Positions 20,087 to 30,370 of a DNA stretch of 64,000 nucleotides are shown piece by piece. The notes below the pieces were generated by a model that saw nothing but the letters and a program-made list of their open reading frames with translations, made no database searches and was not told the DNA's origin. Both the position numbers and the translations under genes were made by a program. This stretch comes from Candidatus Spongiisociaceae bacterium (GTDB lineage Bacteria; Actinomycetota; Acidimicrobiia; Spongiisociales; Spongiisociaceae). The stretch is taken from assembly GCA_965262915.1 (NCBI GenBank), contig OZ253564.1, positions 1 to 64,000 of the forward strand. Direction: 5' to 3'. Each line of letters begins with the position of its first letter. Position 1 is the first letter of the stretch.

Positions 20087-20944
20087 ATGACGCATTCCGC
20101 CACGAACGAGCGGATCCTTCCGGCTCTTCACGCGCTTCGATCCGGCGACGCCGCTCGGCTGCGGACGGCTCTCGACGCCGACCCGGAGGTGGTGAACCTC
20201 ACGGTGGGTGACAGCACGATCCTGGAACTTGCGACGCAACCCGGAGCCGCGCCGCGTTCACCCGAGATCGTCGATGTGCTCGTCGAGGCCGGCGCAGCAT
20301 TGGATCGGGCCCTGAATCTGGCCGGTTGCTGGAACCTGGCCGATCTCTGCTTACAGCTCCTGGCGGCGGGCGCCGACCCGACCGCCCGAGCCGACGCAGG
20401 CATCACACCCCTGGAGTCCGCCGCCATGCACAGCTCCACCGAGGCCGCCGACGTGCTGGTCGGGCACGGTCTCCACCGGCGCACCCTGTGGCTGGCTGCG
20501 GCTACCGGTCTGCTGCCGATGGTTCAGGACTGGGTGGCGACAGACGGGTCGCTCCTGGCGGATCCCGGCCCGTACCGGCCGGATTGGGCCGACGTGGGGC
20601 GGCCGGCCGGCTGTCCGGCAACCGACGACCCGACCGAGATCGTGAGCGAGGCCTTCGTGTTCGCCGCGGCCAACAATCGCCGGAATGTCGTCGACTACCT
20701 CCTGGACGCCGGCGCGGATGTCGACGCCCGTCCGTACCGGAACACCACCGCGTTGCATTTCGCCATCCAGTTCCGGCGGCCCCGGATGGTCCGGATTCTC
20801 CTGGACCGGGGGGCGTCCGTCACCACGGAGGACGGCAACTACCGGTCGGACGCGATGGGTTGGGCAAATGCGTGCGAGGACGGCAGTGAGGAGGCCACCG
20901 AGATCCGCCGACTGGTCAGCGCGGCCCGTTCAAGCCTTCCGTGA
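20087..20944 (+). CDS. Ankyrin repeat protein
   Basis: AGADPTA..GITPLESAA, LLDAGADVDA..TALHFA..LLDRGA. Confidence 0.8.
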   Translation: MTHSATNERILPALHALRSGDAARLRTALDADPEVVNLTVGDSTILELATQPGAAPRSPEIVDVLVEAGAALDRALNLAGCWNLADLCLQLLAAGADPTARADAGITPLESAAMHSSTEAADVLVGHGLHRRTLWLAAATGLLPMVQDWVATDGSLLADPGPYRPDWADVGRPAGCPATDDPTEIVSEAFVFAAANNRRNVVDYLLDAGADVDARPYRNTTALHFAIQFRRPRMVRILLDRGASVTTEDGNYRSDAMGWANACEDGSEEATEIRRLVSAARSSLP

Positions 20945-22250
20945 CCACCAGCGCCTTCCTGATGGCTTCGATCACCCGGGTGATGTCCTCGTCGCTGTGG
21001 GCGGTCGAGGTAAGTGCCAGATGGTCCCCCGGGATGAGCACCCCTTCCAGCATCAGGCGTATGTAGAACTCGCGCTCAGCCTGCGCCAGCGAGCGGTCGA
21101 CATCGCGGGCTGTCACGATCGGGCCCGTCTGGAAACGCAGATGGATCAACGAATGAGCAGCCAGAACCTGCACCGGCATTGAACGCCTCCGGCAGAAGCC
21201 TCCGATGTCCTCGACGAACCTCCTCCCATGTCCGGCTAACCGTTCGTACAGCTCGGGGTTGGATCGCAGATGTCCGATGGCGGCTGTGCCCGCAACCATC
21301 GTGAGGGGGTTGCCGCCGAAGGTTCCGCCGGCGAATACCTTGTCGTGCTCCTCCTGGTGCTTCTGCCACTCGAACCTGCGCATGATGTCGGCGCGGCCCG
21401 CGACGGCCCCTATCGGCAGTCCCCCTCCCAGAGCCTTCCCGTACGCGGCGAGATCGGGTACGACACCGAACTCCTCCTGGGCCCCGCCATATGCCAGGCG
21501 GAACCCGGTGACCACCTCGTCGAAGAGCAACAGGACACCCGCGTCCCTGCAGACAGCGGCCAAGTCGCGGATGAACTCGCCGCAGTCGAGGGTGGGATTG
21601 GCGCCCTGCACCGGTTCGACGAGCACCACGGCCAGCCGATCCCGGTTCTGCCGGATGAGGTCGAAGGCGGCCTCGTGCCGGTAGGGCAGCATCAGCACGT
21701 CCTCGACCGTGGAGTCGGGTATACCCAGTCCCATGGGAACCGGAGCGGGCCGATCCCGCGGGCTTCCGTCTTCCGTCTGGACCAGCACGGCATCATGAGC
21801 CCCGTGATAGGAACCCTCGAACACCGCTATCCCCGACTTGGCAGTGTGGGCCCTCGCAACCCGGATGCCGTACATCGTGGCCTCGGTGCCGGTGTTGCAG
21901 AACATGACCAGGCCGGCGCAAGGGACCGCCTCACGGAACAACTCGGCCAAGGGTTCCTGGTAGGGGGTGTGGATCCCGAACTGGGTCCCTCGGGATACTG
22001 CTTCCTGCACAGCGGTGACGATCTCGGGATGGGCATGGCCGAGCACGTGGCTGCCGAACCCCATCGTCAGGTCTATGTACTCGTTGCCATCGACATCAAC
22101 GACCCTGGAACCCGAACCTTCGGCAATGTAGACGGGATAGGGCATGTCGACGGTGCCGACCACCTCAAGGGCGATCGACTTTCGTGACCGCTCGTAGAGT
22201 TCTCGCGATCTCGGAGTGCGGCGGACGAACTCTTGGTAGGGGTCGGACAT
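20916..22250 (-). CDS. Class III aminotransferase (GSA aminomutase-like)
   Basis: NTGTEA, FEGSYHG, LLFDEVVTGFR, YGKALGGGLP, GTFGGNP. Confidence 0.9.
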   Translation of the reverse strand: MSDPYQEFVRRTPRSRELYERSRKSIALEVVGTVDMPYPVYIAEGSGSRVVDVDGNEYIDLTMGFGSHVLGHAHPEIVTAVQEAVSRGTQFGIHTPYQEPLAELFREAVPCAGLVMFCNTGTEATMYGIRVARAHTAKSGIAVFEGSYHGAHDAVLVQTEDGSPRDRPAPVPMGLGIPDSTVEDVLMLPYRHEAAFDLIRQNRDRLAVVLVEPVQGANPTLDCGEFIRDLAAVCRDAGVLLLFDEVVTGFRLAYGGAQEEFGVVPDLAAYGKALGGGLPIGAVAGRADIMRRFEWQKHQEEHDKVFAGGTFGGNPLTMVAGTAAIGHLRSNPELYERLAGHGRRFVEDIGGFCRRRSMPVQVLAAHSLIHLRFQTGPIVTARDVDRSLAQAEREFYIRLMLEGVLIPGDHLALTSTAHSDEDITRVIEAIRKALVVTEGLNGPR

Positions 22251-22298
22251 CCACAGGTCCCTCCGTAGACGACTATTCCACCGGCTTGTCTGTCCGGA

Positions 22299-23318
22299 TC
22301 AGGGGATCAGCACGGCCCTCCCCCGGACCAGGCCTTCCTCCAAGCGGGCGAACACCTCGTTGATGCTATCAAGCGGATGACGCTCGACTACTGGCGAGAC
22401 CCTTCCCTCCCTGGCGAGGGTCATCACTTGGGTGAGCTCGCTTCGGCTGCCCCAATTTGCCGTGCAAAGATCCACCTCGGCCGGGAAGTCGAGGAACGAG
22501 TACGGGAGGGTTCCCAGGCCCAGCCCGACGATGACGATAAGGGAACGACGCTTCACCACCCGTTTCGCCAGGGCCAATGTCGCGTCGTTCCCGACGAAGT
22601 CGATAATCACGTCGGCACCCTCACCCTCCCCCAGATCCTTGACCGCTGCAACCACATCCCCGTCGCGGGGGTCAAGCGCCACATCCGCTCCGAGTCTCGT
22701 CGCGAGTGCTCGAGCACTCGTCGACGTATCGACGGCTACCACCCGCGCCGTCGAGAGGGTCTTGAGGTATTGCAGACCCATATGTCCGAGGCCTCCTATC
22801 CCGATCGCGACCGCCAGAGACCCCGGCACCAGACGTGGCGACGCCCGTCGCACCGCGCGATAAGGGGTAAGCCCCGCGTCAGTCAGGCAGGCGGCCGCTA
22901 CCGGATCGAGGTCACCGATCGGCTCCAGGTGACGCTGTGCGGGAACCAGGAGGTACTCGGCGTAACCGCCCGGAGGGCCGTGGCCGACCCAGCGGGACTC
23001 GTCGCACATGTGCTCGAGACCGGAGGTGCAGTAGTAGCAGACCCCGCAGCCCCAAGCCCCGAATACCGCCACCGGCTCTCCCTCATCGAGACCTTCCACC
23101 CCCGGCCCGAGGGCCGCCACCCGGCCGGCGTTCTCGTGTCCGAGGATCATGGGGAACTCGTCGATTATCGGGAACTTGCCCATCATCACCGAGAGATCCG
23201 AATGGCAGGCCCCCGCCCCAGCCACCTCGACCAGCACCTCACCCGGTCCGGGCTCAGGCGTGCGAACCTCCCGAACCTCCCAAGGCGTGTTGTAGGAGTC
23301 CAGCAGCGCGGCCTTCAT
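22299..23318 (-). CDS. Zinc-dependent NAD(P) alcohol dehydrogenase
   Basis: CHSD, GHE, CGVCYYC..C structural zinc, GIGGLG. Confidence 0.92.
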   Translation of the reverse strand: MKAALLDSYNTPWEVREVRTPEPGPGEVLVEVAGAGACHSDLSVMMGKFPIIDEFPMILGHENAGRVAALGPGVEGLDEGEPVAVFGAWGCGVCYYCTSGLEHMCDESRWVGHGPPGGYAEYLLVPAQRHLEPIGDLDPVAAACLTDAGLTPYRAVRRASPRLVPGSLAVAIGIGGLGHMGLQYLKTLSTARVVAVDTSTSARALATRLGADVALDPRDGDVVAAVKDLGEGEGADVIIDFVGNDATLALAKRVVKRRSLIVIVGLGLGTLPYSFLDFPAEVDLCTANWGSRSELTQVMTLAREGRVSPVVERHPLDSINEVFARLEEGLVRGRAVLIP

Positions 23319-23328
23319 CTGCGGAAGA

Positions 23329-23700
23329 CTACGCGTCGGAAGACACCCGAGGCTGTTGTAAAGCCTGCAGCAAACGCTCCGTTTGACCTATCCATCGTTG
23401 CAGTTCGGCCGCGGTGGGACCGAGTTCGTAGTGGTGGTGATGGCAAGCTCGGCTGAGCGAAGACCAAGCGCTGCGTACGCTCGCAACCAAGAACCCATCA
23501 GTAAGGATCTGGCCGAGACAGGCCAATTGGGTGAACCTGCTGGCCCGTTCCATCCCTGGAAGCGTGTCAGCCCACAGGCAGTCCAACGCACCTTCGAGAG
23601 CTTGGCGGGCCAACAGCGCAGAAGCCCGCGGCCAGACACCTTCCGGCCCCTCCGGTTCTTCGATCAGCCTACGGGCCGCATGGAGCAGTTCTTCGCTCAT
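23329..23700 (-). CDS. Small helical protein, HEPN-like, translationally coupled to the upstream ATPase
   Basis: ATG overlaps ATPase TGA (ATGA); WPRASALLARQALE ... LSRACHHHHYEL pattern resembles HEPN helix 1 and terminal R...H region. Confidence 0.65.
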   Translation of the reverse strand: MSEELLHAARRLIEEPEGPEGVWPRASALLARQALEGALDCLWADTLPGMERASRFTQLACLGQILTDGFLVASVRSAWSSLSRACHHHHYELGPTAAELQRWIGQTERLLQALQQPRVSSDA

Positions 23701-26102
23701 GCCTTGACACGGATCCGCTCTGCCAGTCCTTGGCAGTCGTTGATGAGGCTCGTCAGGTCTCCCCTGTATCTGTGGTGGACGCCCCGGTTTGCTCCCCAGA
23801 AAGCGTTGGTGAACGTGGAGCCCCATTCTCTCGTGATACGGGTGGAGACTTCACCGCTGCGGCCCATGTCGTCGAACAGGGCCAAGGCTGCTTTCTGGAT
23901 GAGCGTTCTGGCCCCCTCCAACAAACATTCCACTGCGGCGTGGGACTCGCCGCGACCCAGCCGCCGGCGGCGCACCACGTCGACACATGCCGCTTCAAGC
24001 CCTTCGCGGCAGATTCCCGGAATCACGTTCCACGCCACCTGAGCCAGGAGGCCATCATCCCTGGCCACGGCTCGAGCATCCCAGAAGTACTGTCTCATGG
24101 GGTCGAGCGTCTCCCGTACCTCGACCACCGACCCCAAGTGGCGTGTCACCTGCCTGCAGGTGTGGGGTATCTGCAGGCGCCGGAGCGATTCGGGTAGGCG
24201 GTCGTCGTGGGTGAACACGATCAATTGGCGTTCCTTGGCGATCTTGGAGAAGACGCGGGCCAGCCCGTCCACCCGGGCAGGATCCATCGACTGTATCGGG
24301 TCGTCGATCACCAGGAATCGGAACGGGTTTGTCGGCAGTGTGGCCCGTGGGAAGAAGAGGGAGAGAGCCAGGTAACTGATCTCACCCTGGCTGGCCACAG
24401 CGAGCGCCTGTGCTTCCGTCCCGTCGACTTCCACCGTGAGGTCGACATGGCGTCTGGTGCGGGTGCCCGCAAGTTCCACGGATCGCAGATCGACATTGCT
24501 TCCCAGCCGCAACTTCTCCCATAGCTGTAGGGCCTTGGCTTCGATGGGCTGCCACCGAGCGGCCCGCACTGACACTGCGACGTTCTTGAGTGCCTGCTCG
24601 GCCTTCTTGACCTGCCTCACGGCTTCTCGGGATGCCACCGCGGTGCGGGCGTTCTGCTCCCATGCCATCAAGCGGGGGAAGATGGCTCCCCACTGCTCCT
24701 CCTGCCGGGAATACATCTCCTCGGCCCGTTCAGAGATCCGAGTAGCTTCCTTCGCCAACTCTCCGTGGAGCCCCAGCAAATGGTCGGCCATATCGCCGGG
24801 ATGGTCGGGTAGCCCTGCCCAGCGCTTCCAGAGGTCGCGTACGGTTGTTGTGTCAACAGCGGGAACAGCAGGTATGGAGGGCATCACCACCAGGCCCCGC
24901 GCCGCGTCCACAGCCTGCCGGAGGCTTCGCCTCGCCGATCTGTATCGATCTGTCGTCTCGCGCAACCGGTCGACTTGTTCCTGGGTCGAAGCACGCCAAT
25001 CGGCATCCAGCGTTCCCACTCCACAAACCGGGCAGGACTCCCCTTCGTGGGCCTCATGGTGTTCCAAGGCCATCATGAGGAGCCGCACCAGCCGCTCGGA
25101 CTGCTCGACGTCAGTGCCTGCAAGCTCCGAGAACTCAGCGTGAGCGGCCTCAATCTGCGTGGCGGTCTGCAACACCCGCTCCTCATCGGGCACCCGCAGC
25201 GAGACCAGCTCCGAGAGTGCATCCCGACTCGGATCAGGCGCTCCAGCAAGCCGGACCAGAGTATCGAGGTCCCAGACCCTCTTGCTCAGCAGGGAACGGG
25301 CGCGCTCGGCTCGAGGGTCCTCGAGGTCCGCAAGGGCGGGGATGATCTCACCGCGCAACTCCTTCTTCACCTGCTTGTCGACTCTCTCCCTCCCGCGACG
25401 AGCGCCGGTTAGCACCTCCAGGGCCACGTCCACGGGTTTCAGACCGAGAACCTTGGTGAGTGTGTCGAAGAGATCCGAAGGTCTGGCACCGATCATCCCG
25501 AGTTCGTTGTAGGACAGGAGGGGCCGGTACAGGTCGAGGGCACGGTCCCAACCGATCCCGGGGAGGTCGGTGCGCTTCTCTCCGTGGTGCTGGGCAGTCC
25601 CGGATCCACCTGCAAGTTCGGAGTTCTCCGCCCAGGATTTCCCTACCGTCGTGGGTCCCGGTTTGCCTTCGACTTGGAAGCGGGCCGAGATCTTGGGCGA
25701 CAGACCGTCATGGAGGTTTCTCCATCCGTCCTTCCACGGTCCGCTGCGGTCCTCCCAACGTAGAGCGTTACCGGTGAGCAACACCTCGAGAGCCTCGGCG
25801 AAACTGGACTTGCCGGAACCGTTCCGTCCCACCACGACCGTAAGGCTGGGACCCGGAGGAAACTCCAGCGTCACCTCGGGACCGATCCCACGGAATCCCG
25901 ACACGGTGAGGTCCTGGAGGTAGACGGAGGAGGTGTCTGCGTCTGCGCCGTCCTCTTCGCCCGTCGCGTACTCGACGGATCCCCCAGCGAGCACCTGCTC
26001 CACCGCCTCTCCGCCTTCGAGAGAGGCCATCACCAAGTCGAGCGTGCGGTCGTCCACGTCCAACTCGGCCAGTTCCGCGAGGATCTCTCGGTGCAACGCC
26101 AT
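23697..26102 (-). CDS. Rad50/SbcC/SMC-like ABC ATPase with coiled coil, zinc hook and extra C-terminal helical domain
   Basis: GFRGI, Walker A GRNGSGKSS, CPVC hook, signature ASQGE, Walker B VIDDP, H-loop VFTHD. Confidence 0.88.
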   Translation of the reverse strand: MALHREILAELAELDVDDRTLDLVMASLEGGEAVEQVLAGGSVEYATGEEDGADADTSSVYLQDLTVSGFRGIGPEVTLEFPPGPSLTVVVGRNGSGKSSFAEALEVLLTGNALRWEDRSGPWKDGWRNLHDGLSPKISARFQVEGKPGPTTVGKSWAENSELAGGSGTAQHHGEKRTDLPGIGWDRALDLYRPLLSYNELGMIGARPSDLFDTLTKVLGLKPVDVALEVLTGARRGRERVDKQVKKELRGEIIPALADLEDPRAERARSLLSKRVWDLDTLVRLAGAPDPSRDALSELVSLRVPDEERVLQTATQIEAAHAEFSELAGTDVEQSERLVRLLMMALEHHEAHEGESCPVCGVGTLDADWRASTQEQVDRLRETTDRYRSARRSLRQAVDAARGLVVMPSIPAVPAVDTTTVRDLWKRWAGLPDHPGDMADHLLGLHGELAKEATRISERAEEMYSRQEEQWGAIFPRLMAWEQNARTAVASREAVRQVKKAEQALKNVAVSVRAARWQPIEAKALQLWEKLRLGSNVDLRSVELAGTRTRRHVDLTVEVDGTEAQALAVASQGEISYLALSLFFPRATLPTNPFRFLVIDDPIQSMDPARVDGLARVFSKIAKERQLIVFTHDDRLPESLRRLQIPHTCRQVTRHLGSVVEVRETLDPMRQYFWDARAVARDDGLLAQVAWNVIPGICREGLEAACVDVVRRRRLGRGESHAAVECLLEGARTLIQKAALALFDDMGRSGEVSTRITREWGSTFTNAFWGANRGVHHRYRGDLTSLINDCQGLAERIRVKA

Positions 26103-26217
26103 CCGGTCCTCCCTATCGTGCCGCCGTTGCCGTCCAACATAGAGACCCGGTGTGACACGCGCCCTTGCACAAGCTGAGCAGACGGGGTCAATACCCGGTC
26201 GGTAGGATTCCGGGCTA

Positions 26218-27312
26218 ATGACGGCATCGTATCGGGATCAGTATGTGGATCTTCTGCGCTCGGTCTCGCTGGTGGTGGTGGTGATATGGCACTGGGTGTT
26301 CACCATCTTGGTGGTCTCGCCCGAGACGGTCTCCCCTTCCAACCCGATCGGGTCCACCCGCGGACTGTGGGTGGCGACGTGGGTACTGCAGGTGATGCCG
26401 GTTTTCTTCTTCGTGGGCGGGTACACCCACCATCGCTCCTTCCGCAACTACACCCGAGGAACATCCCGCCGGTTCCTCAAGCGACGGATGGGAAGGCTGC
26501 TCGCACCGGCTATCGGACTGGTGGCGGTCTGGCTCGTGATCGGCTGGGTGCTGGAACTGACCCTCAACCCGGCCTGGACCTGGTCAGCGGTCATCCTGGT
26601 GCTTTCTCCGCTGTGGTTTCTGCTGGTGTATGTGACGATGGTCCTCATCGCCCCGATCGCCATCCGTGCCCACTGGCGTTGGGGGGAGATCGCGCCGGTG
26701 TGGCTGCTGGGTCTGGCCGGAGTGCTGGACGTGCTCCGTTTCACCCAAGGTCAGGGCTGGGCGGCATGGGCAAACTTCCTGGTGATCTGGGGACTTGCCC
26801 ACCAACTCGGTTTCTTCTACGACCGGCTCGTGGCCGCTCCGCCCCGAACCGGCTGGATGATGTTCTGGGCCGGCCTCTTCGCCCTCATCGCCCTCACCAA
26901 CATGGGTTTCTACCCGCGGTCCCTGGTGGGCGTACCCGGCGAGCGCTTCTCCAATATGGGACCACCCACCCTGGCGATCGTGGCGTTGACCTTCCTCCAA
27001 GTGGGGCTGGTCCTGGTGATACGCCCCAAAGTGCTGGCGTGGCTGGAACGAGGAGATCTGGCGCAGCGGGTGGTCGGTTGGATCAACGAGCACGCCATGC
27101 CCCTCTACCTGTTCCACTCCACCGGTATGGCCGTAGTAGTAGCCATCCTGTTCGGCTTCGGCTACATACCGCCAGCCGAGCCGACCCTCGAATGGTGGCT
27201 CACCAGACCCCTCTGGCTCATCGGCCCCGCCATAGCCACCTGGCCCCTCCTCGCGCTTTACCGCGTAAGCAGGCGCCCGACTGCCGCACCCGTCCCGAAG
27301 CTCACCGATTAG
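26218..27312 (+). CDS. Acyltransferase 3 family membrane protein
   Basis: DLLR...VVIWH, MPVFFFVGG, RMGRLL, PLWFL, LYLFH. Confidence 0.88.
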   Translation: MTASYRDQYVDLLRSVSLVVVVIWHWVFTILVVSPETVSPSNPIGSTRGLWVATWVLQVMPVFFFVGGYTHHRSFRNYTRGTSRRFLKRRMGRLLAPAIGLVAVWLVIGWVLELTLNPAWTWSAVILVLSPLWFLLVYVTMVLIAPIAIRAHWRWGEIAPVWLLGLAGVLDVLRFTQGQGWAAWANFLVIWGLAHQLGFFYDRLVAAPPRTGWMMFWAGLFALIALTNMGFYPRSLVGVPGERFSNMGPPTLAIVALTFLQVGLVLVIRPKVLAWLERGDLAQRVVGWINEHAMPLYLFHSTGMAVVVAILFGFGYIPPAEPTLEWWLTRPLWLIGPAIATWPLLALYRVSRRPTAAPVPKLTD

Positions 27313-27462
27313 ACACCTGCAGTAGCGTCGACCGGTCTCCCCGCAAGCTGTGTTGTAGCGCCCGAACAAATGTCACGCGTGTAGGTTATCCTCACACCAT
27401 GGTCAGTCGAGTTCCCCCAGCACCCCCCGATGACAGCGGCCGGGCTCTGCAGATGCTCTTGG

Positions 27463-28317
27463 ATGAGGGGGATCGTGTGGGGAGATGCATCCGAGTGGTT
27501 GCCCCGGCTTCCGGCGAACTCCGTGGACTTGTTCTTCATGTCACCCCCCTACGCGGACGCTCGCGCTTACTCCCGCATTTCGCCAGATCGATATGTGGAA
27601 TGGTTCGTACCCTTCGCCGAGGCCATGCTGAACGCGGTCTGCGACACCGGCTCGTTCGTGTTGAACATCAAGAATCGGGTTGCCAAGTCGGGGCCACTGA
27701 AAGGTCAGCGCCACCCGTATGTATATGAACTGGTTCTGGCGTTGCAGAACATGGGCTGGCGATGGACGGAGACATACATCTGGAGGAAACCAAACGCTAT
27801 CCCCGGCCGATTCGGGCCTCGCACAAAGGATGCGTTCGAGTACGTGTACCACTTCACGAAGGGTTCTCGCCCGTACTTCGACCTAGACGCCGTACGGATA
27901 CCGTACAAGACGGATCCGGGGGAGATCGCCCGGCGCAGCCTGGACACCAACGGCCGCCGCAACACAGAGGCTGGGTTCGGACGAGATCGCGCCCGGACCT
28001 ACGGCCACGAAGGTGCTGATCCGGGAAATGTGATCACCGTGGGTCAGACCTACAACCAGCACAAAGGCCCGGCAGGGCTGCATACCGCGGTGATGCCGGA
28101 GGGTCTAGCCGAGTTCTTCGTCAAAGCAGCCTGCCCACCGGGCGGACTGGTTATCGACCCGTTCGCCGGGTCGGGCACCACCGTGGTAGTCGCCCGTCGC
28201 CACGGCCGCAGAGCCGGTGGGATCGAGCTACACGACCAGTACGTAGCCGTCGCTCGAGACCGCTTGGCCAACGACCACACGCAGGAGGAACTGGGGATGC
28301 TCATTGCCGCTCACTGA
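27463..28317 (+). CDS. Site-specific DNA methyltransferase, beta class, probably N4-cytosine
   Basis: SPPY catalytic motif N-terminal, HTAVMP, DPFAGSGTT SAM motif C-terminal; start 27430 or 27463. Confidence 0.9.
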   Translation: MRGIVWGDASEWLPRLPANSVDLFFMSPPYADARAYSRISPDRYVEWFVPFAEAMLNAVCDTGSFVLNIKNRVAKSGPLKGQRHPYVYELVLALQNMGWRWTETYIWRKPNAIPGRFGPRTKDAFEYVYHFTKGSRPYFDLDAVRIPYKTDPGEIARRSLDTNGRRNTEAGFGRDRARTYGHEGADPGNVITVGQTYNQHKGPAGLHTAVMPEGLAEFFVKAACPPGGLVIDPFAGSGTTVVVARRHGRRAGGIELHDQYVAVARDRLANDHTQEELGMLIAAH

Positions 28318-29430
28318 CTCAGAACGCGATCTTCTGTCGAGGGCGGGCACCACACCAAGCCCAACGGTGCGGCGCCAAGCGGTCGCCATCGCCTTGGCGA
28401 AGTCCGGCGTGGCCAGAGAAGAAGCCGGTGACTTACTGGGTAAGGGATTCGTCGCGGCTACGCAGCCGTCGTTCCACTACATCCCGAGGGGCGACACGAT
28501 GGCCGACGAGAGCGATTTCGACATCGCCTACGGGTGTCTGGCCGAACACACCGACGACTTCGCCGCCGTCTCCGAGGACACGTTGATCAGGGCCTTGACC
28601 GAGAAGCCAGCAGTGCTCGCACCGCTCCGGATGATCCTGGGTTTCACCTACAACGAGCTGTCTTGGGCGATGAAGCTCACCCGAGCCGGGACCACAACTT
28701 CGGGAACAACGCTCCGAAACTTTGAACGCGGCCCGGAACCCGAACGGATGACAGCAAGAAGATCCGAGATGATCGAGACGATCGCCGCGACTGCGTGCGC
28801 GGTAATGGATCGGAGCATCCTCCAGATACCGGAGTCAGCCCGCAGGTTCTTCCATTCCAAGTTGGACAAGCAGGACACCGTGAAGGGCTGGCAAGCGGTC
28901 GCGGTCGCGGTCGCTGCCGGTGGCGTACCGTATTCGGCCCTGCTCTACCAGCGATACGTGGGCGGGGTATGGCGACAGATTCAAGACGCCTACTCGGAAG
29001 TCAAGGGTGACAACCTCTTGGAGCAACCGATAGCGGACCTGTTCGACTCCAATGGTATCTCTTACTACCGGTCTGGAACAGGAGCGTCCGGAGCAACCGC
29101 CACCGACCGGAGGTTCGGGCTCGCTCCGGGACCCGACTTCGTGCTGCCTGAGGAATCGCCCACCGTGATCATCGAGTCGAAGGTCGCTGAGGACGGTGGG
29201 ACCGCTCGTGATAAGGCGGCCCGAATCAAGAACGCGTCCGAAGCAGCCAAGGCTCGCGGCTTGTTGCCTTGTGCCGTCATCGACGGTAAGGGCTGGTCCG
29301 AACGTCTAAGGCGCTTCTGGATATCGTCATCGCCACCGACGGCCGCGCCTACTCCCTCGCCACCCTTACCCACCTGCTCGACATTCCCGAAATCGCCGAC
29401 CAGCACTCCACTGTGACAGGCTCCACGTAG
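28304..29430 (+). pseudogene. Type II restriction endonuclease-like PD-(D/E)xK nuclease with apparent 1-nt frameshift near 29308
   Basis: PDFVLP..IIESK, EDGGTARDK, VIDGKGW; overlaps MTase stop; a more protein-like tail (ALLDIVIATDGRAYSLATL) continues in another frame to TAG 29430. Confidence 0.7.
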
Positions 29431-29512: not shown

Positions 29513-30370
29513 TCAGAACTGGTCGAAGAACCCGGGATCGATCTCGACGTCTTCGATCACCCGCTTTCTGACGGTCACGCCCAAGCCGTAGTCCTTCAAT
29601 AGGTCACATAGTTCTTCGCCGCTCACAAGATCGACTGGTGGAGCGCCGTCCCGGGTTGCCTCCTCACGGGCACTCCGGGTGAACGACCCGGTGGTTATGA
29701 GGAGTCCTTTGTCGCCGCGACCGGACATTGCTCCCCGGAAGTCGCGGACCGCGCCCGACGATACGGAACTTCGATATCGCTTACACTGGAAAAAGGTAGG
29801 GAACGAGACCAACGACAAACGGTAAACACCCATCCCGTCTATCCCTCCGTCGCCGGACCTGCCAAGTACTTCCACATTGCGAAATCCCGCCTCTCTCAGT
29901 AAACGCTGCGCCAGTCGCTCGAAGGCATCCGGTGGCATTCGAAGGAGATGCTCGAGCAGATCAGTCCTCCACTTATCGGGATCTCCATCGGGGTCATCGG
30001 CGTCTGCGGGGTCGGTCGGTAGAGAATTCGCGTCGTCCGGATCGGGTGGTGGCATAGGCTGCTTATCCGGGTTTTCTACCTGCTCTCTGGTCAGATTGCG
30101 GCCTAGTTCGGTCAGGGCCCACACACCTCTTGAGGAATTAACTAGGGCACCAATGTTCTTTAGGTGGGTGCGCGCCCACGCAAGTCGATAGTCAATCTCG
30201 GTCTGCGGAGAACCAGGTTTGTGCATAACACCCAGTAACTCCTCAGCGAAACCCTCCTGTTTTGCGACCTGTACGGAAATCTCGAATATATGCGATGACC
30301 CACCCAGCGCGCGTACCGCTTCCAGGACAGGCCACATCATCTGATTCGGAGTAGGCATTCTGAGGCTCAT
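29513..30370 (-). CDS. mrr: Mrr-family type IV restriction endonuclease
   Basis: Mrr_N (RLAWARTHLK..G..SSRGVW), FERL, SGDGGIDG, QCKRY, RDFRGAM, GLLITT. Confidence 0.92.
   Translation of the reverse strand: MSLRMPTPNQMMWPVLEAVRALGGSSHIFEISVQVAKQEGFAEELLGVMHKPGSPQTEIDYRLAWARTHLKNIGALVNSSRGVWALTELGRNLTREQVENPDKQPMPPPDPDDANSLPTDPADADDPDGDPDKWRTDLLEHLLRMPPDAFERLAQRLLREAGFRNVEVLGRSGDGGIDGMGVYRLSLVSFPTFFQCKRYRSSVSSGAVRDFRGAMSGRGDKGLLITTGSFTRSAREEATRDGAPPVDLVSGEELCDLLKDYGLGVTVRKRVIEDVEIDPGFFDQF

Follow-up and report, generated by a model that had tools for sequence, protein, structure and literature searches.

A candidate two-gene, RloC-like module pairing a zinc-hook SMC/Rad50-type ATPase with a separate HEPN-fold partner

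Do a zinc-hook ATPase gene and the small open reading frame (ORF) that overlaps its end form one functional unit and, if so, of what kind? The question is raised by a locus in a 64,000-nucleotide stretch of a Candidatus Spongiisociaceae genome (Actinomycetota; contig OZ253564.1, positions 1 to 64,000), here called the window, for which the original prediction, made from the sequence alone, was a defence system in which a DNA-sensing ATPase gates a heterodimeric HEPN RNase. The ATPase and partner genes prove to be an obligate pair, and we estimate at about 0.5 the probability that this pair is a two-gene, two-subunit RloC-like abortive-infection RNase module gated by a DNA-sensing ATPase.

The large gene encodes a member of the SMC/Rad50-type ABC ATPase family, with the following features.

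23697-26102, minus strand: SMC/Rad50-type ABC ATPase gene, 801 amino acids (aa), stop codon 23697-23699, from the ORF and its translation
25923-26102, minus strand: conserved N-terminal region of ~60 aa (aa 1-60), ahead of the head; M1, A26 and G30 invariant
25803-25829, minus strand: Walker A, GRNGSGKSS (aa 92-100), invariant in 15/15 sequences
25023-25034, minus strand: CPVC zinc-hook motif (aa 357-360); C357, P358 and C360 invariant
24381-24395, minus strand: variant ABC signature ASQGE (aa 570-574); S571, Q572, G573 and E574 invariant
24282-24317, minus strand: Walker B and D-loop, FLVIDDPIQSMD (aa 596-607), of the conserved form FLVIDDPxQxMD
24207-24209, minus strand: H-loop histidine H632 in an FTHD motif; T631, H632 and D633 invariant

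Invariance was scored on an alignment of 15 ATPase homologues of 44-73% identity, in which F596, I599, D600, D601, P602, Q604, M606 and D607 of the Walker B/D-loop region are likewise invariant; the predicted 801-aa ATPase with all ABC motifs, a CPVC hook and an ASQGE signature is thereby borne out. The hook lies near the middle of a ~290-aa insert that separates the two halves of the head and, by analogy with the architecture of the family, is probably a coiled coil. The ATPase matches the Pfam families SMC_N (1e-14), AAA_21 (2.6e-14) and AAA_23 (4.9e-10) and, among sequences in the PDB, SMC and Rad50 heads (5h68_A, 1.5e-11; 3qf7_A, 8e-7). No NCBIfam model reached its curated cut-off on the ATPase, and the Pfam scan gave no family match for aa 1-60. 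Of 8000 proteins scored in a word-indexed search, 2361 are homologues at E <= 0.001; the best 120 of these are mostly ~800 aa long and cover 95-100% of the query, tail included. Homologues of 909-927 aa were considered as ATPase-partner fusions and ruled out, the extra length consisting of inserts in the arm. One homologue, P0005, diverges from the window ATPase in a mosaic fashion: identity reaches 98% in the N-terminus, 96% in the tail and 89% in the C-terminal head but is 46-47% in the two arm halves, a pattern that suggests recombination or diversifying change in the putative coiled-coil arms.

The partner is encoded immediately downstream.

23329-23700, minus strand: stand-alone partner gene, 123 aa, with a predicted HEPN fold; stop codon 23329-23331, ATG overlapping the ATPase TGA

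As read originally, the ATPase stop codon overlaps the start of the 123-aa ORF, the TGA and ATG sharing the sequence ATGA at 23700. The partner frame has a further upstream ATG at 23826, which would give 165 aa; the homologues begin at the overlap. A scan of one genome per species yielded 268 ATPase relatives, from which 80 loci were kept. According to the record titles, these come from Actinomycetota (Nocardia, Streptomyces, Pseudonocardia, Micromonospora, Actinoplanes and Lentzea) and from Acidobacteriota, Chloroflexota, Dormibacterota, Gemmatimonadales, Myxococcota, Spirochaetia and proteobacterial metagenome-assembled genomes (MAGs). In 79 of the 80 loci, the gene immediately after the ATPase, in the same orientation, encodes a partner homologue (phmmer against all ORFs, E 7e-48 to 1e-5); the sole locus without one, L015, is a contig of 2509 bases that is cut 98 bases past the ATPase match. 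The partner start codon overlaps the ATPase stop codon in 57 of 78 loci, a count favored by the script, which chose the start nearest to the stop. Furthermore, the distances among tails and among partners co-vary (Mantel r 0.69 over 40 loci, a value reached in 0 of 999 permutations), which is partly explained by shared descent. All-against-all clustering of the flanking ORFs across loci revealed no third conserved gene, and the next largest clusters of flanking genes (<=18 loci) represent synteny among Nocardia species.

A profile built from 49 partners and searched against 1.84 billion representatives matched 1353 proteins at E <= 0.001 and 980 at E <= 1e-10. All but one of the 150 matches listed are 107-229 aa long, and the partner is therefore a stand-alone protein. 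An apparent natural fusion in L037 (5992-8865, a single 958-aa frame) was rejected, given that the junction does not retain the final tail helix; a genuine fusion is less likely here than a frameshift in the MAG sequence. Further long frames shared by ATPase and partner are merely open frames of GC-rich DNA. The Nocardia partners (L047, L049, L060, L064 and L022) carry an Arg/Gly/Pro-rich N-terminal extension of 30-60 aa that is absent elsewhere, and in L022 the region between the two genes contains a run of N and a low-complexity repeat. In a promoter and terminator scan of positions 22200-26500, 1 terminator-like site and 0 promoter-like sites were detected, which does not exceed the level in shuffled sequences. 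Two sequencing runs presumed to be RNA yielded 3 and 1 short contigs over positions 22200-27400, which is no evidence of transcription.

What kind of domain, then, is the partner, and what follows the H-loop in the ATPase?

23700-24122, minus strand: C-terminal tail of the ATPase (aa 661-801), with a HEPN fold predicted from an AlphaFold model and structure matches

AlphaFold models were built from alignments of the tail and of the partner. The tail model (predicted local distance difference test, 95.5) comprises seven helices preceded by the final beta-hairpin of the head, and the partner model (94.1) has five helices. In the VIA structure search, which is independent of Foldseek, the top match of the partner is the HEPN protein AF0298 (2hsb; Z 13.2, 110 residues aligned, root mean square deviation 2.8), followed by 3mfn (12.7), 1wwp (11.2), the sacsin HEPN domain (11.2), 1ufb (10.7), 4nqf (10.6) and 1wol (10.3), with Csm6, HEPN toxins, AbiA, LsoA and Las1 at lower ranks. 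The tail retrieved 2hsb (9.0), 3mfn (8.9), 1wol (8.5), 1ufb (8.4), 4nqf (7.7) and the sacsin HEPN domain (3o10, 7.5). Entries titled as HEPN occupy ranks 1, 4, 6 and 7 of the top 10 for the partner (Z 13.2-10.3) and ranks 1, 3, 5, 6 and 9 for the tail (Z 9.0-7.0). Foldseek listed 3mfn, 1wwp, 2q00, the HEPN toxin 7ae8, the HEPN protein 1o3u and 4nqf for the partner at weak E values of 0.05-0.4, with TM scores of 0.60-0.63 for the small HEPN proteins (3mfn, 1wwp, 2q00 and 1o3u) and 0.53 for 7ae8; for the tail, HEPN entries were listed weakly.

When the tail and partner profiles were compared with each other, hhalign gave a probability of 86.5% (E 4.6e-6 over 113 columns) and placed CRxALEAA in register with RQALExA and GAH with ACH. 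Judging from the models, the tail and the partner are both HEPN-fold domains of the four-helix, up-and-down type, and the profile alignment indicates that they are paralogues of each other, in agreement with the fold and the mutual similarity that had been proposed for them. No Pfam, PADLOC or NCBIfam model covers either one. Among HEPN sequence models, the Pfam family HEPN (PF05168) was touched by 1 of the 49 partners (E 0.071), and no tail matched any HEPN family. In the Atlas, the partner falls into unnamed clusters; the nearest named ones are HEPN_RnaseLS and HEPN, at 0.77-0.80, which is a lead only.

Do these domains retain residues of a nuclease? Three positions in each are conserved almost throughout.

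24006-24008, 23994-23996 and 23775-23777, minus strand: R699, E703 and H776, the putative triad of the tail, from conservation counts
23605-23607, 23593-23595 and 23440-23442, minus strand: R32, E36 and H87, the putative triad of the partner, from conservation counts

The patterns CREGLEAAC and NRGVH after the H-loop in the tail and ARQALE and SRACHHHHY in the partner are present as first described. R32, E36 and H87 of the partner each recur in 48 of 49 sequences; in the tail, R699 and E703 are kept in all 47 and H776 in 46 of 47. Across the 15-sequence alignment, P695, C698, R699, E703, A705, C706, H721, L740 and H776 of the tail are invariant. One locus, L043 (7888-8735), is alone in having lost the tail histidine (replaced by D) and likewise alone in having lost the partner histidine (replaced by R), and may be a jointly inactivated copy. 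The anticodon-nuclease triad of PrrC and RloC is given in PMC2610378 as Arg-X3-Glu-X36-52-His; in the RloC of G. kaustophilus, it consists of R692, E696 and H737, each reported there as essential. The partner spacing between E36 and H87 is X50, within the RloC range. Thus, on residue conservation, the R-x3-E...H arrangement of both domains appears to have the form of the PrrC/RloC nuclease triad, and the original analogy with RloC, with its zinc hook in the ATPase, is apt.

On the RloC-like reading, the mechanism would be as follows. HEPN nucleases are generally dimers with a composite site. The tethered domain (the tail) and the free one (the partner) would pair up, and the R-x3-E and His residues of both would form one composite, metal-independent RNase site. 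ATP-dependent engagement of the heads and DNA binding by the Rad50-like part would keep this site off until it is freed by DNA ends, by DNA damage or by the DNA of a phage; the RNase might then cleave tRNA or other RNA, so that translation stops in the infected cell. A tail-partner heterodimer is favored over the tail alone because the second HEPN domain is obligate and co-translated and carries the same triad, co-lost in L043. With one HEPN domain tethered to a zinc-hook DNA sensor and the other free, the RNase site would exist solely at the interface and be switched by the ATPase cycle. We infer the heterodimer, the RNase activity and its target, and the DNA sensing from these features, and the defence role on circumstantial grounds. 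More tentatively, the pair may represent an unnamed family (~1000 clusters at 50% identity) of two-gene immune modules, not yet in PADLOC, whose effector is an asymmetric HEPN heterodimer.

How does the pair compare with known systems? It matches no named system in PADLOC, Pfam or NCBIfam, as had been supposed, and our literature search found no description of a two-gene RloC-like system. The closest likeness is to RloC, a wobble-nucleotide-excising anticodon nuclease (Davidov & Kaufmann 2008, PMC2610378). Shared are a length of ~800 aa, an ABC head split by an insert that bears a CxxC zinc hook and is a coiled coil in RloC and probably also here, a C-terminal domain of ~140 aa assigned to the HEPN superfamily with a catalytic-type His downstream, an R-x3-E whose residue numbers nearly coincide (R692/E696 in the G. 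kaustophilus protein versus R699/E703 in the window ATPase) and occasional linkage to restriction-modification genes. RloC, however, has no separate paralogous HEPN subunit, whereas the pair described here always has one, and the His follows the Glu by 72 residues in the tail compared with 36-52 in RloC. The module is architecturally very close to RloC, yet by sequence it is not a member.

PrrC likewise joins an ABC ATPase to a HEPN nuclease domain, with the triad R320-x3-E324...H356 according to PMC2610378, and restriction genes lie near the pair in the window and in two other loci (L050 and L063). Unlike the pair, PrrC, which is silenced by the type Ic restriction-modification enzyme EcoprrI, has no coiled coil, zinc hook or paralogous small subunit and resides inside a type I restriction-modification operon.

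Rad50-Mre11 and SbcCD share the ABC head, the long arm and the CxxC zinc hook, and the PDB and NCBIfam matches are confined to head motifs; the pair differs in having a HEPN tail and a HEPN partner instead of an Mre11/SbcD phosphoesterase. The NCBIfam models for Rad50, SbcC, RecF and RecN score far below their cut-offs, the best being ASRP (40.2 bits versus 300), with the Rad50 models at 17-20 bits versus 454-1000. In keeping with the initial description, the Pfam scan identified no Metallophos or SbcD gene adjoining the pair in the window, and no Mre11/SbcD-type partner is conserved across the loci; the Metallophos genes found in 2 of 28 surveyed loci each come with an SbcC-like ATPase of their own.

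The best PADLOC matches of the ATPase, all partial, are mad3 (4e-23), LmuB of Lamassu (1.7e-20) and the candidate PDC-S06 (3e-14). These are SMC-like ATPases of defence systems, but the matches cover parts of the ATPase only, and none of their partner genes is present. Neither LmuA nor LmuC adjoins the pair; the only LmuA match (9.5e-6) is the catalytic domain of the Mrr enzyme 3.4 kb away. Finally, HEPN-MNT (HepT-MntA) includes a small HEPN-fold protein of ~120-130 aa, as reflected in the structure matches 7ae8/7ae2, 8xdj and 5yep, and the window partner formally fits its Rx4HxY motif. The pair differs in lacking a nucleotidyltransferase, in keeping the Arg of Rx4H in only 26 of 49 partners and in coupling the partner to an ABC ATPase.

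Does the genomic setting fit a defence function? The ATPase was found in 14 of 41 related genomes, including all 7 other genomes of the genus. The spread of the pair is patchy: it was detected in 13 of the family's 24 genomes and in 0 of 16 that belong to the order's other families. Two complete copies are present in G003 and possibly in G007. Within the genus, the flanking proteins are 91-94% (acyltransferase), 87-88% (Zn-dehydrogenase), 85-87% (aminotransferase) and 90-93% (amidohydrolase) identical, compared with 57-73% for the ATPase and 63-69% for the partner at the same position; thus, the pair diverges faster than the flanking genes.

In the window, the pair is flanked by the Zn-dehydrogenase and the acyltransferase, and a variable slot beyond the acyltransferase is occupied by three genes.

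27430-28317: N6_N4 DNA methylase, from the Pfam/PADLOC scan
28304-29416: unknown ORF of 370 aa that overlaps the methylase stop codon; no Pfam, NCBIfam or PADLOC match
29513-30370, strand opposite to the methylase and the 370-aa ORF: Mrr-type type IV enzyme, from the Pfam/PADLOC scan

These are the restriction-modification and Mrr genes that the original prediction had placed nearby; the block lies 1.3-4.3 kb from the pair, and the 370-aa ORF is possibly the cognate endonuclease of the methylase. The slot of G005 holds the same methylase/ORF/Mrr block at 78-88% identity. In that genome, the pair and the acyltransferase are also separated by an insert of 4.5 kb (L094, 11292-15242), which encodes a cytidine-deaminase-like protein, an AAA_15/AAA_21/DUF3696 ATPase of 416 aa and two ORFs not assigned to any family, and looks like another defence cassette in the same slot. 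G004 has an Mrr gene alone, directly beside the ATPase, and in G002, none of the methylase/ORF/Mrr or insert genes was found within the 20 kb examined. A tRNA scan of the 64-kb window found none, and therefore the pair is not part of a tRNA-flanked island there.

Beyond the genus, 261 flanking ORFs from 28 taxonomically spread loci were surveyed against Pfam, 14 ORFs of L078 and L080 (size limit) and a few antisense ORFs being left out. The defence, toxin-antitoxin and mobile-element families encountered were as follows.

PIN: L007 and L010, directly upstream; L018
GmrSD: L029, L045
SIR2_2, abutting the ATPase: L031
Type I restriction-modification: L050, L063
cas genes (GSU0053/GSU0054/Cas3): L025
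BrxC/D and TerB: L027
Schlafen-type helicase: L017
HigB: L002
Phd antitoxin: L043
nSTAND1: L038
Patatin: L039
Integrase and caspase: L033
Insertion sequence elements: L004, L007

In addition, the pair is found on the Streptomyces plasmid pM92 beside NB-ARC/TPR genes, where it is annotated as "AAA family ATPase" and "hypothetical protein."

Several observations weigh against the RloC-like reading. To begin with the fold, VIA itself warns that unrelated helical bundles can reach a Z of ~13; for this reason, the case for the fold rests on the appearance of the same family at the top of both lists, wide coverage and the paralogy between tail and partner. RloC-type proteins fit the Pfam family AAA_13, against which the ATPase reaches 21.7 bits, below the cut-off of 36, and only over residues 564-633 in the C-terminal head. 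AAA_13 was not detected in the genome of the window at E <= 1e-20 and is present in 6 of 301 genomes of the phylum. The proteins from the 7 matches in those genomes all contain a CxxC (CPFC, CLFC, CPLC or CEFC), and 6 of the 7 have a C-terminal R-x3-E followed by (S/H)H; the other, L088, extends past the end of its locus and lacks a C-terminal domain. When the tail and the partner were aligned with the six AAA_13 C-terminal domains, hhalign gave probabilities of 0.1-0.2%, although six divergent sequences make a weak test; the short best alignments put the R-x3-E motifs in register.

The residues, too, deviate from expectation. The tail spacing of X72 between E703 and H776 is outside the RloC range, although it is consistent with the extra helices of the tail, and H721, at X17 from E703, is kept in only 29 of 47 sequences. 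The canonical Rx4-6H motif is not conserved, and no conserved Arg lies 4-6 residues before H776. The initial statement that neither motif is a canonical Rx4-6H accordingly holds for the tail and across the family but not for the window partner, in which SRACHHHHY formally fits Rx4HxY (R84, H89 and Y91). Across partners, these residues are kept in 26, 36 and 43 of 49 sequences, respectively, and the near-invariant His is H87. According to the HEPN survey in PMC3710099, there are families that retain the His of Rx4-6H without its Arg and employ different conserved basic residues.

The distribution supplies the remaining points. Each of the 7 other genomes of the genus carries the pair in a syntenic position, which looks like vertical inheritance. 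Of the 28 loci surveyed, 17 have one or more defence, toxin-antitoxin or mobile-element families no farther than 6 kb away, a raw count without a background rate rather than an enrichment test, and the other 11 have no defence or mobile gene nearby and include gyrase (L013), recBCD (L065) and metabolic genes (L001 and L021). The nSTAND1 gene of L038 is 4 kb off, and that pair is otherwise among NADH-dehydrogenase genes. Finally, plasmid matches amount to 3 of 72,556 records, and no match was detected in 50,697 phage records.

Could the partner be a restraint on the nuclease rather than half of it? The active nuclease might be a tail-tail HEPN homodimer that forms on head engagement, with the partner as a stoichiometric inhibitor, a decoy or antitoxin, that sits on the dimer face and must be displaced or degraded. 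The paralogy and about equal size of the two domains would suit this arrangement, as would the tight translational coupling, which is appropriate for a 1:1 neutralizer; partner-restrained HEPN toxins are known from the titles of structure entries (HEPN-MNT and LsoA-Dmd), and PMC2610378 describes RloC as acting as a single polypeptide without a partner. A pure blocker, however, need not keep catalytic-type residues, and yet the three partner residues are each kept in 48 of 49 sequences. The joint loss of both histidines in L043 and the equal divergence of partner and tail (mean distance 0.65 versus 0.65) also speak against inhibition, and we consider this explanation unlikely.

Less probable still is a housekeeping role, in which the large protein would be an SbcC/Rad50-like ATPase of DNA repair or chromosome maintenance and the HEPN folds would be non-catalytic adaptors that bind nucleic acid or protein, as in MtlR-type or nucleotidyltransferase-associated HEPN. 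The synteny throughout the genus fits such a role, and so do the position of the L065 pair after recC-recB-recD, the SbcCD-like pairs that follow in L027 and L043 and a RefSeq note on the plasmid copy, "double-strand break repair," which is an automatic annotation. Moreover, Rx4-6H is not conserved, and according to PMC3710099, HEPN domains without it can be non-catalytic. The same distribution, however, includes the absence of detectable pairs from 11 of 24 genomes of the family and from the 16 of other families, as well as the extra copies in G003 and possibly G007. In addition, the pair diverges far faster than its flanks and borders a slot that swaps defence genes, no Mre11/SbcD-type nuclease partner is conserved, and a near-invariant R/E/H triad would be unusual for a mere adaptor. 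That the two are independent neighbors without a joint function is highly improbable and already contradicted by the linkage counts (partner downstream in 79 of 80 loci from many phyla, codons overlapping in 57 of 78), to which the co-variation of tail and partner distances (Mantel r 0.69) adds, with a contribution from shared descent.

What would the RloC-like reading mean if it is true? ABC-ATPase-gated HEPN nucleases (PrrC and RloC) are classic models of suicide immunity. The pair has about an even chance of belonging to this known kind, in a two-gene form with a separate HEPN subunit. On the more tentative reading of an asymmetric HEPN heterodimer as the effector, it would achieve with two different subunits, in a way of its own, what RloC accomplishes with a single polypeptide. 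Obligate tethered and free copies of the nuclease domain would also be a tractable system for testing HEPN dimer formation as a switch. Actinomycetota (Nocardia, Streptomyces, Pseudonocardia and Micromonospora), Acidobacteriota, Chloroflexota, Dormibacterota and other soil lineages commonly carry the module, and, to our knowledge, few defence systems from these groups have been experimentally examined. Current defence catalogues probably miss it because the records say "AAA family ATPase" and "hypothetical protein."

Some minor observations concern the neighbors. The window encodes an ankyrin-repeat protein (20087-20944) whose repeats account for a match to the PADLOC candidate PDC-M72A (4e-15); because its gene belongs to the genus-conserved metabolic flank, a defence function is improbable. 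Two actinobacterial loci that are unrelated to each other have an SbcCD-like pair (Metallophos and an AAA_23/AAA_27 ATPase) downstream of the module and in the same orientation: in L043 (8441-12210) it follows immediately, and in L027 (9726-14403) two ORFs that match no family come in between. In L025 (4957-14361), from a Myxococcota MAG, a WYL-domain gene is upstream of the module and GSU0053, GSU0054 and Cas3-like genes are directly downstream; in L011, the position held by these cas genes is occupied by DUF6361 and a DEAD helicase.

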